Assembly (NCBI GenBank): GCA_016700415.1
Contig: CP065018.1
Span: 3,765,284 to 3,829,283, forward strand
Origin: Flavobacteriales bacterium
Lineage (GTDB): Bacteria; Bacteroidota; Bacteroidia; Flavobacteriales_F; PHOS-HE28
DNA: 64,000 nucleotides
Direction: 5' to 3'
The position numbers and the translations under genes were made by a program. Below the pieces are notes generated by a model. It saw only the letters and a program-made list of their open reading frames with translations, made no database searches and was not told the DNA's origin. Below, in pieces: positions 10,752 to 58,763 of the stretch. Numbering within the stretch: the first letter of the stretch is position 1; every line of letters begins with the position of its first letter.

Positions 10752-11495
10752 AGAGGACACCAAGCATTGCTTCCATGGGTGATCGGCATGCGCGACTTTC
10801 TGAGGCTTGAAAAGGGCTATTGGGTGAACGAAAAGCGGGTGCGCAGGCTCCTTCGGCTAATGGGCTTGGAGGCCGTTGCGCCCAAGCCTGACCTGAGCAA
10901 ACCCGCCAACGGGCATAGGGTCTATCCCTACTTGTTGAGAGGTGTGCAGATTGAAGCTCCGGGGCATGTTTGGAGCACCGACATCACCTACATCGCCATG
11001 GGCAAAGGGTTCCTGTATCTCACCGCCGTGATGGACTGGCACAGCCGCTACGTGCTCTCTTGGCAGATCAGCAACACCTTGGACACCTCCTTCTGTCTGG
11101 AAGCTTTGCATGGTGCGCTGTTGCAATATCCTGCACCAATGATCTTCAATACCGACCAAGGCAGCCAATACACCAGCGACCTCTTTACCGGGGCGTTGAT
11201 CCAGGAAGGCATCAAGGTGAGCATGGATGGCAAGGGCCGGGCTACGGACAATGCGTTCATCGAACGACTTTGGAGAAGCGTGAAGCAGCAATGCGTCTAT
11301 CGCCATAGCCCCGCCGATGGGAATGAGCTGCGCAGCCTTCTGGCCGAGTACTTCGCCTATTACAACCACCAACGACCACACCAGCACCTGGATGGACTGA
11401 CCCCGGCACACCTTTACTTTGGTCTGCCCGATACCCGGAACCGTACCCTGACACCAAACCTTGTTGAACCCCAATTCACACTAACAACCGCCTGA
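10585..11495 (+). pseudogene. IS3-family transposase OrfB (DDE integrase core), frame-disrupted
   Basis: OrfB N-terminal segment (ERCRALDLARSSFYYQPKGESALNLELMRLMDEEDTKHCFHG) lies in the +1 frame relative to OrfA and terminates at 10782; the catalytic core (WVIGMRDFLRLEKGYWVNEKRVRRLLRLMGL...DQGSQYTS...RPHQHLDGLTP) resumes in the OrfA frame from 10767, implying an extra indel near ttccatgggtgatcgg. Confidence 0.55.
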
Positions 11496-16608: not shown

Positions 16609-17340
16609 CTACCCTTCGAACGTGAACGTCAGCACATAGGTCTTGGTGCGGAGGCTCTGTATCGGTCTGCTGAATCGCGTGTCATCGTCCACCACTAAGT
16701 TTGGGATGCCGATGCCGGTCTTCAGCTCGATGCCGAACTTGAAGTAGGGGAGGAACATGTCGATACCGGCACCGGCCTCCGCGCTGTAGTCGTATTTTTT
16801 CAGTTTCACCACGATGTCCTCGTCGATGTCGTTATTCACGTCCTTCTTGCTGGCCATGTCGATGCCGAACTTGCCGCCACCGATCACATAGACCGCGAAG
16901 TTGTTGATGCGGTCGCTGCGGAATTTCAGCAGGAGCGGGAATTCGAGATAAGTGCTCTCGATGGGTTTCTGGAAGCTGGAGGTCGTGCCGTCCGCCTTGC
17001 GGAAGGAGTACTTAAGGATGCGGTCCTGGAAGGAGAGTGTGGGCAGGAAGCGCAGGCTGAGGTTGTTGGTCATGTTCAGCGAGGCCACGATGCCGAGGTT
17101 GAAACCGGGCTGCTTCACGTGGTCGATCACCAGCACGGAATCCGCGAAGGGCGCGGTGGGCTTCAGCGTCATGAAGAAGTCACTGGTGTTGTAGCTGAGC
17201 AGGAAGCCGAAGTGGAAGCGGTGCAGGTCGAAGTTGGGCAGGTTCTGGACCTTCACACCGGTGCGTTGGGCGGAAGCCGGGGCCGCGATGCAGAGGAGCA
17301 GGAGCGGAGCGAGGAGGTAGGAGAGCTTGAGGAAACGCAT
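16609..17340 (-). CDS. PorT-family outer-membrane beta-barrel protein
   Basis: MRFLKLSYLLAPLLLLCIAAPASAQ signal peptide then alternating-hydrophobic beta-strand pattern, C-terminal ...TYVLTFTFEG; start at 17338-17340 rather than track 17385. Confidence 0.6.
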   Translation of the reverse strand: MRFLKLSYLLAPLLLLCIAAPASAQRTGVKVQNLPNFDLHRFHFGFLLSYNTSDFFMTLKPTAPFADSVLVIDHVKQPGFNLGIVASLNMTNNLSLRFLPTLSFQDRILKYSFRKADGTTSSFQKPIESTYLEFPLLLKFRSDRINNFAVYVIGGGKFGIDMASKKDVNNDIDEDIVVKLKKYDYSAEAGAGIDMFLPYFKFGIELKTGIGIPNLVVDDDTRFSRPIQSLRTKTYVLTFTFEG

Positions 17341-17391
17341 CGGGTAAAGCAACGAAAGTAGCGGGCAATTCGTGCGTGGGCTCATTTGCGG

Positions 17392-17618
17392 CAGGGCTAT
17401 CGGGTCTTGAGCGCCCTGCGGGCGCCTAAGACCGCGTGTTCTTTACCACGGATGGACACGGATCAACACGGATCCAAGCCCCAAGGTCGATGAGCCTATG
17501 CTTAGGGATCCATTGCTCTGTGCTGTCCCTCATCCGTGTACATCCGTGTCCATCCGTGGTTCCTTGCATGCTGTGCGAAGCGCCGATAGGCGCGAGAAAT
17601 TAAGACCCGATAGCCCTG
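17392..17618. mobile_element. MITE-like non-autonomous element (227 bp) with perfect 17-bp terminal inverted repeats and 10-bp target-site duplication
   Basis: TIRs CAGGGCTATCGGGTCTT (17392-17408) and AAGACCCGATAGCCCTG (17602-17618); direct repeats TCATTTGCGG at 17382-17391 and 17619-17628; interior has inverted triple heptads (cacggat x3 / atccgtg x3); no ORF. Confidence 0.7.
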
Positions 17619-18335
17619 TCATTTGCGGGCCATGTACAGCGTGGCCACGCCGAAGGTGAGCAGGCGCGAATTGATCTCTTTTAGTCCACAGGTGTTCAGC
17701 ACTTCTTCAAAGGCTTTTCCCTGCGGGAACGCGTCCACACTTTCGGGCAGGTAGGTGTAGGCGGCGTTGTCCTTGCTTACCAAGCGGCCGATCAGCGGCA
17801 TCACCCGGTGGAAGTAGAAGCGGAACAATTGCTTAAAGGGCGTGCGTTGCGGCCTGCTGAACTCCAGCACGAAGAGCCTTCCACCGGGGCGTAATACGCG
17901 CACCATCCCGGCAATGCCCCGGGCGAGGTCCTCGAAGTTCCTAACGCCGAAGGCCACGGTGATCGCATCGAAGGAAGCGTCCGGAAAGGGAAGCTCCGCC
18001 GCATCGGCCTGTATGAGTTCGATACGGTCCGACAGGCCGGCTTTCTCCACCTTGGTGCGGCCATGGGCCAGCATGCCCGCCGAGATGTCCGCGCCGGTGA
18101 CGTGCTTGGCCACCGTGCTGCCCATGATGGCGAGGTCAGCGGTGCCGGTGGCCACATCCAGCAGGCGGTCCACGGGTTCCTTGCCCACGCCACGGATCAC
18201 TTTCCGGCGCCAGCCTTGGTCGGTACCCAATGAGCAGAGCCGGTTCAACAGATCGTACTTCGGAGAGATGCGGTCGAACATCAGTTCCACCTGCTCCCGC
18301 TTGGACCCTTCGGCCGCGTACGGTTTTACGGTCAT
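17619..18335 (-). CDS. menG: demethylmenaquinone/ubiquinone C-methyltransferase
   Basis: MTVKPYAAEGSKREQVELMFDRISPKYDLLNRLCSLGTDQGWRRK...LLDVATGTADLA... UbiE/MenG class I SAM MTase; start at 18333-18335 inside track ORF 17619..18491. Confidence 0.85.
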   Translation of the reverse strand: MTVKPYAAEGSKREQVELMFDRISPKYDLLNRLCSLGTDQGWRRKVIRGVGKEPVDRLLDVATGTADLAIMGSTVAKHVTGADISAGMLAHGRTKVEKAGLSDRIELIQADAAELPFPDASFDAITVAFGVRNFEDLARGIAGMVRVLRPGGRLFVLEFSRPQRTPFKQLFRFYFHRVMPLIGRLVSKDNAAYTYLPESVDAFPQGKAFEEVLNTCGLKEINSRLLTFGVATLYMARK

Positions 18336-20526: not shown

Positions 20527-20619
20527 GCGCGGAAATGGATTCGGGGCCGGAACGGCTGGATCATACGAGGCCGCGAAATTAGCCGTTAGGCTGGAAGAAG
20601 GTCCGGGCCATGGTTGTAA

Positions 20620-20780
20620 TACCATTTAGACATAGAGAACGATCCAACCTGCTTGTTCTTTTCCCGCATTACTTCTCCGAATGGATCGTCCCGTAGCTAC
20701 GGCTATGCAACAATCCATTCGGATCGTACTGCGAAAAAATAACGGCGCATCTTCGGACTGTTCTCTATGTCCAAATGGTA
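20620..20780. mobile_element. MITE-like element (161 bp) with 21-bp TIRs (1 mismatch), nested internal palindromes and TAA flanking duplication
   Basis: TACCATTTAGACATAGAGAAC (20620-20640) vs GTTCTCTATGTCCAAATGGTA (20760-20780); flanking TAA at 20617-19 and 20781-83; inner 10-bp stem CCGAATGGAT/ATCCATTCGG (20677-20722) enclosing perfect palindrome CCGTAGCTACGG (20691-20702). Confidence 0.55.
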
Positions 20781-20844
20781 TAAGTACCGACCGTTATTCG
20801 TTGGATCAGGTCTTCCGCCCGAACTTCGCCGCAAACATTTCCGC

Positions 20845-43706: not shown

Positions 43707-43752
43707 AGCTTGAGGCTTGTGGCTGAGTGCTTCAAGCCACAAGCCTCAAGCT
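43707..43752 (+). terminator. rho-independent terminator after nos operon (perfect 18-bp stem, 10-nt loop, T-rich tail)
   Basis: AGCTTGAGGCTTGTGGCT gagtgcttca AGCCACAAGCCTCAAGCT ttaatctt; preceded by a second perfect 20-bp palindrome CCTGCCTGCCGGCAGGCAGG at 43664-43683. Confidence 0.7.
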
Positions 43753-49108: not shown

Positions 49109-49154
49109 ACGAGGTTCGGAGATCTGATTTCTGATACAGGGTATTGGGTACTTA

Positions 49155-49190
49155 GTACAGGGTACTGTACGTCGGCAGTACCCTGTACTC
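49155..49190 (+). terminator. terminator hairpin after nrdJ (14-bp stem AGTACAGGGTACTG / CAGTACCCTGTACT, 8-nt loop)
   Basis: Perfect inverted repeat 47 bp after nrdJ stop; no strong U-tract. Confidence 0.55.
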
Positions 49191-49271
49191 GGTACCGTTC
49201 CGAACATATCGGTCCTTTAATAGTTAGGAAACCTTACTATATTTGTCCCCGAACTTCAAAACCCCAACACA

Positions 49272-57267: not shown

Positions 57268-57336
57268 AAAAGAGCGTCTCAGAGTTTTACCACAAAAGGG
57301 ACACGTTGATGTCGTAGGCCGGGCGCCTCAACGGCA

Positions 57337-57370
57337 TTATCCGCGTCCATCCGTGTCCATCCGTGGTTCG
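57337..57370. repeat. partial copy of the inner arm of the 17392..17618 MITE-like element
   Basis: ATCCGCGTCCATCCGTGTCCATCCGTGGTTCG vs 17531..17563 CATCCGTGTACATCCGTGTCCATCCGTGGTTCC; no TIRs present here. Confidence 0.6.
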
Positions 57371-57386
57371 TTCTAAAATCGACAAC

Positions 57387-58763
57387 ATGCAACACAAGAC
57401 CATCATCGAGCCCTTCCGCATCAAGAGCGTGGAGCCCATCAGCGTGGGCACCGAAGCGGAGCGCACGCAATACCTGAAGGACGCCCACTACAATCCGTTC
57501 CTGCTGCGATCGGACAATGTGGTGATCGACTTCATGACCGATAGCGGCACCAGCGCCATGAGCGCCCGGCAATGGGCGGGCATGATGGAGGGCGATGAGG
57601 CCTATGCCGGTTCGCGGAGCTGGGAGCGCATGGAGCGGGAAGTGCGGGACCTCACCGGCATGGCGTACATCCTCCCCACGCACCAAGGCCGCGCCGCGGA
57701 ACGCATCATCTATGGCCACTTGGGCGGCCCGGGCAAGGTCTTCATCAGCAACACGCACTTCGATACCACACGCGCCAACATCGAGTTCAGCGGCGCCACC
57801 GCCATCGACATCCCCATCGCCGAAGGGAAGGACACGGCCTTGGAGCATCCGTTCAAGGGCAACATGGACGTGGGCGAGCTGGACCGCTTGCTGAAGGAGC
57901 ACAAGGGCCATGTGGGCGCGGTGATCCTCACGGTGACCAACAACAGCGGAGGCGGCCAGCCGGTGAGCATGGCCAATGCGGAGAGCATCGCCGCGATCTG
58001 CAAGCGGCACGGTGTGCTCTACTTGCTGGATTGCTGCCGCATCGCGGAGAACAGCTGGTTCATCAAGCACCGGGAGGAAGGCATGGAAGGCTTGACCTAT
58101 CGCCAGATCGCGCAACGCATGTTCGCCCTGACCGATGGCGCCGTGATGAGCGCCAAGAAGGACGCGCTGGTGAACATGGGCGGCTTTCTGGCCTTGAAGG
58201 ACGAGGTCTTGGCCGAGGCCTGCATCAACCTCTTGATCATCACGGAGGGCTTTGCGACCTATGGCGGATTGTCCGGCCGCGACATGGAGGCGATCGCGAT
58301 CGGCCTGCAGGAGATCTTCGATCCGCACTATCTGGACTACCGGATCAAGAGCACCCTTTTCCTCGGGAAGAAGATGCACGAGCTGGGCGTTCCGCTGATG
58401 ATGCCCATCGGTGGGCACGCGGTGTACGTGGACGCGAAGAAGCTGTATCCCCACATCCCGCCGCATGAATATCCCGGGCAGGCCCTGGTGGGCGAACTGT
58501 ACAAGCTGGGCGGCATCCGCACGGTGGAGATCGGCTCCGTGATGTTCGGCACCTACAACGCCGACGGCACGCTGAATCCCGCGCCCATGGAGCTGGTGCG
58601 CTTAGCCATTCCGCGCCGGGTGTACACGCAGAGCCACATCGAATACGTGGTGGAGACCTTCGAGGAGATCATGAAGCAGCGCGACCGGGTACGCGGGTTG
58701 AAGATCACCAAGGAGCCGCGTTTCCTGCGCCACTTCACCGCGCACTTCGAGCCATTGACATGA
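57387..58763 (+). CDS. tnaA: tryptophanase (beta-eliminating lyase, TnaA-like paralog)
   Basis: MQHKTIIEPFRIKSVEPI..., NTHFDTTRANIE (TnaA-type vs [11 protein letters not shown]), [13 protein letters not shown]-terminal PRFLRHFTAHFEPL like E. coli TnaA PKVLRHFTAKLKEV. Confidence 0.8.
   Translation: MQHKTIIEPFRIKSVEPISVGTEAERTQYLKDAHYNPFLLRSDNVVIDFMTDSGTSAMSARQWAGMMEGDEAYAGSRSWERMEREVRDLTGMAYILPTHQGRAAERIIYGHLGGPGKVFISNTHFDTTRANIEFSGATAIDIPIAEGKDTALEHPFKGNMDVGELDRLLKEHKGHVGAVILTVTNNSGGGQPVSMANAESIAAICKRHGVLYLLDCCRIAENSWFIKHREEGMEGLTYRQIAQRMFALTDGAVMSAKKDALVNMGGFLALKDEVLAEACINLLIITEGFATYGGLSGRDMEAIAIGLQEIFDPHYLDYRIKSTLFLGKKMHELGVPLMMPIGGHAVYVDAKKLYPHIPPHEYPGQALVGELYKLGGIRTVEIGSVMFGTYNADGTLNPAPMELVRLAIPRRVYTQSHIEYVVETFEEIMKQRDRVRGLKITKEPRFLRHFTAHFEPLT

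Follow-up and report, generated by a model that had tools for sequence, protein, structure and literature searches.

Among the bacterial MITEs are the Correia/NEMIS elements of Neisseria, RUP of Streptococcus pneumoniae, ERIC/IRU and the cyanobacterial MaeMITEa-h. The REPs are another class of small repeat: ~35-bp units, linked to RAYT (IS200/IS605-like) proteins, in which terminal inverted repeats (TIRs) and a target-site duplication (TSD) are both lacking. The insertion sequences (IS) of the ISAs1 family have inverted repeats of 14–22 bp that start with CAGGG, together with a 10-bp direct repeat (PMC11946415); in the 1306-bp ISArsp11, a member of this family, the inverted repeat reads CAGGGCTGATGCAAAGTCG and the direct repeat measures 10 bp (PMC6305408, Table 3).

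The subject of this report is a 227-bp element in the DNA of an uncultured Flavobacteriales bacterium, located within a 64-kb stretch that was analysed as a whole (the window). It resembles the bacterial MITEs listed above in its size (~200–300 bp), its TIRs and TSD, its non-coding, multi-copy and mostly intergenic character, the stable stem-loop predicted for its transcript and the possession of ends in common with an autonomous IS, the presumed mobiliser. There is no sequence similarity to Correia/NEMIS, RUP, ERIC/IRU or MaeMITEa-h, and what distinguishes the window element from the other bacterial MITEs is its ISAs1 parent, its two GC hairpins and its palindrome of 3+3 phased heptads (this comparison draws in part on PMC2779907 and PMC11602168). 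With the REP/BIME repeats the family shares small GC-rich palindromic modules that are intergenic, recombined and sometimes in tandem (as at L085 4080–4340; L numbers denote sampled loci), but the DDE-type TIRs and the 10-bp TSD of the window element set it apart from the REP/BIME class.

With respect to the ISAs1-family IS (ISAs1 of Aeromonas salmonicida, ISArsp11 of Arthrobacter and the H-repeat/YbfD-YdcC type of E. coli), the window element has the same CAGGG(CT) start of the TIR, a TIR length within the 14–22-bp range and the same 10-bp direct repeat, and its same-end relatives encode a transposase with the NF033564 / DDE_Tnp_1_assoc + DDE_Tnp_1 signature. It differs from these IS in being only 227 bp long, in lacking a transposase gene and in having an unrelated interior; it is a non-autonomous passenger of the family and not itself an IS. 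The element is, then, an ordinary, if well-documented, mobile element: a MITE of standard type that belongs to a known IS family and comes from an uncultured lineage, with a conserved but not extraordinary interior. In the searchable literature we found no paper that links ISAs1 with MITEs; that a MITE family from uncultured Flavobacteriales of activated sludge belongs with ISAs1 may thus be a new assignment, though it will hardly surprise a specialist.

A reading of positions 17100–17900, together with a repeat finder, places the element at window positions 17392–17618 (Table 1), exactly where an earlier note made from the sequence alone had described a 227-bp MITE-like element with perfect 17-bp TIRs and a 10-bp duplication. 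The direct repeat that brackets it is perfect and exactly 10 bp long. No other occurrence of the TIR exists in the 64-kb window, even when up to 3 mismatches are allowed, and when the window was shuffled 200 times under a first-order Markov model, perfect 17-mer inverted repeats with halves ≤400 bp apart arose with a mean of only 0.005 per shuffle; the abutting 10-bp direct repeat contributes a further calculated factor of ~1e-6 (4^-10). Taken together, these three observations exclude a chance origin of the TIR pair.

Table 1. Features of the window and of the related full-length IS discussed in the text
Feature	Position	Strand	Remarks
Outer-membrane beta-barrel gene (OMP_b-brl_2)	16609–17340	-	243 aa; downstream of menG, co-directional
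Left TSD copy	17382–17391		TCATTTGCGG, i.e. CCGCAAATGA on the - strand
Left TIR	17392–17408 (17 bp, perfect); 17392–17410 (as 19 nt)		CAGGGCTATCGGGTCTT
Subterminal GC-rich hairpin 1	17410–17426		GCGCCC-TGC-GGGCGC; kept across family copies
Central palindrome, left arm	17445–17473		AACCACGGAT-type array; 3 CACGGAT, 10-bp period; columns invariant in 11 copies
Central loop	17474–17531		Length and sequence vary between copies
Central palindrome, right arm	17532–17560		3 ATCCGTG heptads, then GGTT
Subterminal GC-rich hairpin 2	17580–17593		GCGCC-GATA-GGCGC; kept across family copies
Right TIR	17602–17618 (17 bp, perfect); 17600–17618 (as 19 nt)		Exact reverse complement of left TIR
Right TSD copy	17619–17628		TCATTTGCGG
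menG/ubiE	17619–18335	-	238 aa; Pfam Ubie_methyltran, E 2e-63
TIR-less heptad relic	57283–57379		Right arm ATCCGCG/ATCCGTG x2 + GGTTCG intact; left arm decayed
Full-length IS, 1221 bp	L109 3985–5205 (related MAG)		Same TIR pair; 10-bp TSD AGGTGGATGC; one ORF

The interior is organised around a palindrome in which, as the earlier note had it, three CACGGAT heptads (starting at 17447, 17457 and 17467) face three ATCCGTG heptads (17532, 17542 and 17552), all with a 10-bp period; the two arms are 29 nt each and 93% complementary. The claim that the element has no coding capacity is a fair one, as the only ORFs inside it are of 47–55 codons and are unsupported. The same note had proposed that the whole element can fold into one long hairpin, which is only roughly correct. 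The predicted fold of the - strand RNA is indeed very stable (-122.5 kcal/mol, z = -9), but it is multi-branched: the 17-bp TIRs form the outer stem and the heptads a long inner one, and three small hairpins branch off at the side. We also observed that the loop of hairpin 1 (17417–17419), which is TGC in the window, reads GCA, its reverse complement, in a 96%-identical copy found elsewhere (L144, see below), a difference that points to template switching as the cause of a flipped hairpin loop.

The gene next to the element is menG/ubiE, which public sources name demethylmenaquinone/ubiquinone methyltransferase and which is called as the same gene in public assemblies. Its stop codon lies at 17619–17621 (TCA, hence TGA on the - strand) and is directly abutted by the element, so that the right copy of the 10-mer does include the menG stop, as had been noted earlier; in fact it provides the last two codons of the gene (R, K) along with the TGA. 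The left copy follows immediately after the element on the - strand; through a spurious ATG in this copy, the mechanical ORF of the OMP gene further downstream is lengthened.

Proteins exactly identical to this MenG and OMP are encoded by numerous public contigs assigned to an uncultured activated-sludge “Flavobacteriales bacterium” (among others, in assemblies GCA_016716825.1, GCA_016702475.1, GCA_016704785.1 and GCA_035433465.1). The element was present in all 15 of the loci sampled from this species, which come from at least six assemblies and, having been retrieved via two neighbouring genes, amount to ~10 distinct contigs. In 13 of the 15 loci it is identical; the other two, both from contig ERZ795391, differ at 4 positions. 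An alignment of menG loci gave a quite different picture for four sister taxa whose MenG proteins are 96, 90, 87 and 84% identical: each has a single CCGCAAATGA and no element. The OMP gene comes straight after menG in each of the four, with the same 40-bp leader that in the window is found downstream of the element, and the distance from the OMP start to the menG stop is thus 40 bp at the empty site and 277 bp with the element. The difference between the window and the sister taxa consists of exactly the 227-bp element plus a second copy of the 10-mer. The single 10-mer at these empty sites implies a genuine transposition with a 10-bp TSD, and since the target covered the last two menG codons and the stop, the duplication restores the ...ARK* end and leaves menG intact. 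That menG is intact and the 40-bp region upstream of the OMP gene untouched is probably why the insertion was tolerated and is now fixed in the species.

Promoter and terminator scans gave nothing, with a tool that lacks Bacteroidetes-type promoters, and there is no terminator-like site (a GC-rich stem-loop followed by a T/U run) on either strand between 17200 and 17800. By eye, a conserved TACTTTCG can be seen 12 nt ahead of the OMP start codon, the first base of the motif and the ATG being 17 nt apart. This could be a -7 box, and as such a candidate it would lie downstream of the insertion.

The parentage of the element is indicated by a full-length IS in a related MAG (L109; Table 1). Its single ORF encodes a 370-aa protein that matches the NCBIfam model NF033564, “ISAs1 family transposase”, with an E-value of 8e-110 and 367 bits (cutoff 70), over profile positions 2–313 of 314; the protein also matches the Pfam families DDE_Tnp_1_assoc and DDE_Tnp_1. 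At each end, 19 of 19 nt are identical between the window element and this IS, and the polarity is kept: the left end of the element, CAGGGCTATCGGGTCTTGA (...CTTGA), is the transposase-proximal end of the IS, and the reverse complement of its right end, CAGGGCTATCGGGTCTTAA (...CTTAA), is the transposase-distal one. Beyond these 19 nt per end we detected no homology between the two; the 189-bp interior is unlike the IS, which has no heptads. The MAG DAOKZW contains, in addition to the full IS (L109), another IS end (L068) and two MITEs of the CACGGAT type (L023 and L048). In the 64-kb window itself, tblastn revealed neither an ISAs1 transposase gene nor a pseudogene of one, and a search with transposase homologues for the species' own IS gave matches on 1.2–2-kb orphan contigs or in other MAGs. 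Also encountered (L145–L154, mostly on orphan contigs of 1.2–2.4 kb) was a related ISAs1 element; it measures 1218 bp, its transposase is 62% identical to the L109 protein, and its TIR is CAGGGCTATCGCGTCTT, the single difference being mirrored at both ends.

The traits of the ISAs1 family are distributed between the IS and the small elements. The 17-bp TIR of the window element begins with CAGGG and lies within the 14–22-bp range; direct target repeats of 10 bp (8–10 bp in the family) flank the window copy, the L109 IS, seven other small elements and the L144 copy; and the single transposase ORF is found in the L109 IS, a trait that does not apply to the MITE itself. The earlier note had considered a 10-bp duplication long for known IS families and took it as a hint of an uncharacterised parent transposon. 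Against the first point stand the 10-bp direct repeats of the ISAs1 family (PMC11946415, PMC6305408). As for the second, the transposase of the autonomous relative is a textbook member of the ISAs1 family, and as an ISAs1 parent predicts just such a 10-bp TSD, the idea of an uncharacterised parent is left unsupported.

To place the element in a wider context, we scanned a collection of one genome per species (596 Gb, both strands) with the 17-mer, which gave at least 120 loci. About half of the matches listed are due to chance and were set aside; they fall within coding sequences from unrelated phyla (QGYRV(L/F) codons). By calculation, a 17-mer should turn up ~70 times by chance across the 596 Gb, both strands counted. 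The remaining matches listed come from Flavobacteriales/Bacteroidetes MAGs, often ~98 nt from a contig end, as is to be expected for multi-copy repeats. Such repeats break short-read assemblies, and the many TIR matches listed at ~98 nt from contig ends thus have a bearing on MAG quality. A scan of viral contigs with the TIR gave one match, inside a coding sequence and attributable to chance.

Pairing the TIRs with ≤3 mismatches delimited small elements of 209–311 bp. Perfect 10-bp TSDs flank seven of these (L013, L023, L051, L081, L085, L092 and L119), and two others have near-perfect ones (L062 and L064). A scan of metagenomes with the TIR plus 8 nt added the L144 copy, which is 96% identical to the window element, sits at an unrelated locus and has its own perfect TSD, as well as L143, which represents a sister subfamily. 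At least 11 related copies from Flavobacteriales/Bacteroidetes MAGs could be aligned. The 11 copies have the same layout: on the left, the TIR, a hairpin CGCCC-TGC-GGGCG, a spacer and a AACCACGGAT-type array of 2–4 heptads; on the right, after a variable loop, the mirror array ending in GGTT, a spacer, a hairpin GCGCC-NNNN-GGCGC and the TIR. While the heptads and hairpins are nearly invariant among these copies, the spacers and loops vary. Only 3 of 46 pairs covary in the alignment, the stems being kept in sequence rather than through compensatory change, so that covariation neither proves nor disproves selection on the structure. Other subfamilies with the same TIR have CGCAGAT or CACAGAT heptads at 9–10-bp periods in the same 3+3 layout, which gives the consensus CRCRGAT. 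When a profile HMM of the family was run against the window with nhmmer, it recovered one full copy (E 8.5e-51) and one partial match at 57305–57375 (E ~1e-6); there is no second full copy in the 64 kb. At L085 5380–5602 there is a MITE copy with incomplete TIRs, one short of its outer 17 nt and the other of 9 nt, that is nonetheless flanked by a 13-bp direct repeat, ATGGAGCAACATC.

The search for further copies and for an autonomous relative with the same TIRs, both of which the earlier note had suggested looking for, was thus productive on each count. That note would have given up its reading for an element that was single-copy, without TIR-sharing relatives and syntenic across taxa, a description clearly at variance with what is found here.

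Considering all of these results, the element is very probably a MITE, a non-autonomous derivative of an ISAs1-family IS that would have been mobilised in trans, inserted via 10-bp staggered cuts and fixed as a near-neutral insertion; in addition to the sequence comparisons with the autonomous relative, the empty sites in the sister taxa and the other copies support this identity. The element is short (<~600 bp) and has TIRs, a TSD with a corresponding empty site and no transposase gene. It belongs to a family present at multiple loci: 11 or more copies from related MAGs can be aligned, L144 adds another, and the 64 kb of source DNA hold one full copy together with one relic. It has its ends, 19 of 19 nt each, in common with an autonomous element. 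We infer the following mechanism. A full-length IS with the same ends would supply, in trans, a DDE transposase of the ISAs1 family, and this enzyme would recognise both of the 17–19-bp terminal repeats. The 227-bp element would then integrate into the target CCGCAAATGA by means of 10-bp staggered cuts, whose repair would duplicate the 10-mer. This duplication would rebuild the end of menG/ubiE, presumably with near-neutral effect. An insertion at the very end of a gene can, in other words, be harmless because a 10-bp TSD is able to rebuild the stop codon. As to the heptad palindrome, our best guess is that it serves in cis, as an architectural site, a site for a host factor or a cruciform, and so helps the ends of so short an element to synapse. 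Transcribed MITEs are known in other cases to affect read-through or mRNA stability, and it is possible that this one, if transcribed, secondarily affects menG–OMP read-through or the stability of the mRNA.

Two other origins of the element would not involve the transposition of a short form, and both seem to us very improbable. One is that of a structured RNA specific to this locus, such as a menG 3'UTR element, a small RNA, an attenuator or a terminator. The great stability predicted for the - strand RNA would fit such a role, as would the position between two co-directional and formerly tightly linked genes. Nevertheless, the element is missing from the same site in the four sister taxa, it has a TSD and its related copies are at unrelated loci; nor is there a terminator-like stem with a T-run, and covariation is confined to the few pairs mentioned above. 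Rfam has no family for it: the sole match at a permissive E-value is to MIR408, a plant miRNA family, and with an E-value of 0.09 and only 19 bits, where the gathering score is 64, this is noise. The empty sites, the TSD, the copies elsewhere and the lack of an Rfam match or a terminator together exclude a locus-specific RNA as the origin, and we would give it next to no credence. The other, which we regard as if anything still more remote, is that a full-length ISAs1 element lost its interior by deletion in situ and that the remnant was never mobilised as a short form. Such a remnant would retain the two different IS ends in the right polarity, and this is indeed the case over 19 nt; but the 189-bp interior is dissimilar to the IS, the same interior layout is seen again in 11 or more copies at separate loci, every one with a TSD of its own, and the 96%-identical L144 copy lies elsewhere. 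Short copies that are dispersed and have a common interior imply that the short form itself must have transposed.

A third reading retains the ISAs1 ends and concerns the palindrome between them. The element could be a composite in which the heptad palindrome (17445–17560) is an independent repeat module that was captured between ISAs1 ends, and which might function as a protein-binding array, a cruciform or a BIME-like building block; although more plausible than the two previous readings, this one appears distinctly unlikely to us. It is suggested by heptad arrays that have no TIRs, at 57283–57379 in the window and elsewhere at L085 (3600, 4194 and 5487) and L062 (4604). The relic at 57.3 kb, which lies outside the MITE copy and is of the same repeat family, consists of the heptads ATCCGCG, ATCCGTG and ATCCGTG, separated by TCC and followed by GTTCG, and of a decayed left arm (TTTTACCACAAAAGGGACACG...). 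It sits in a 119-bp spacer between two beta-eliminating-lyase genes, just upstream of a tryptophanase gene that starts at 57387. In relatives with 93% and 91% identical tryptophanases the corresponding spacers are only 24 bp and 6 bp long, which implies that ~95 bp, roughly the central palindrome alone, were inserted at this place. Within the MITEs, moreover, the heptads are the most conserved columns of the interior, the loops and spacers having diverged; the sister subfamilies with the same TIR keep the 3+3 layout with variant heptads (CGCAGAT, CACAGAT), and the autonomous IS does without heptads altogether. On the other hand, 27 of the 33 array clusters in the sampled DNA are associated with TIRs, though these loci had been chosen by TIR. 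The relic at 57.3 kb has no recognisable TIR, TSD or defined ends, and the variation of the period between 9 and 10 bp fits slippage-prone minisatellite DNA just as well as it does phased binding sites. The TIR-less arrays may either be decayed copies of ordinary MITEs (at L085 5380–5600 part of one TIR is retained) or mean that the palindrome is a module of its own. That the CRCRGAT palindrome should be an independent functional module (an array bound by a protein of the host or one associated with the transposase, or a cruciform drawing the ends of so short an element together), able to exist and to insert without ISAs1 ends, is a possibility that the arrays and their alignments raise but that we consider rather doubtful. 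If it were true, these Flavobacteriales would carry a mosaic, BIME-like repeat system, spread beside genes by ISAs1-type MITEs, with possible regulatory consequences for the neighbouring genes.

A tandem mosaic of three units is present at L085 4080–4340 (MAG MFD09964.bin.1.3). Each unit contains an ATCCGTG array ending in GGTTCAAAC and a small hairpin, CCTTCGCGAAGCGAAGG. There are no ISAs1 TIRs, and the arrangement is reminiscent of BIME-like modular repeats.

Finally, the window contains several other repeats. The segment 10263–11520 (1258 bp) is bounded by 24-nt inverted repeats that are 83% complementary, and the ORF at 10767–11495 within it encodes an IS3-type integrase-like sequence (...DQGSQYTS...); this is probably an insertion sequence of the IS3 family. 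At 20612–20788, just upstream of an aminotransferase gene, there is a 177-bp and relatively AT-rich element with imperfect (82%) terminal inverted repeats of 34 nt and an internal 22-nt palindrome (20676–20723), which may be a second, unrelated MITE-like element. There are also two hairpins, which may be terminators or other repeats: a perfect one of 18 bp with a 10-nt loop at 43707–43752, AGCTTGAGGCTTGTGGCT, and another of 21 nt at 49147–49196, 90% complementary and with a loop of 8 nt.
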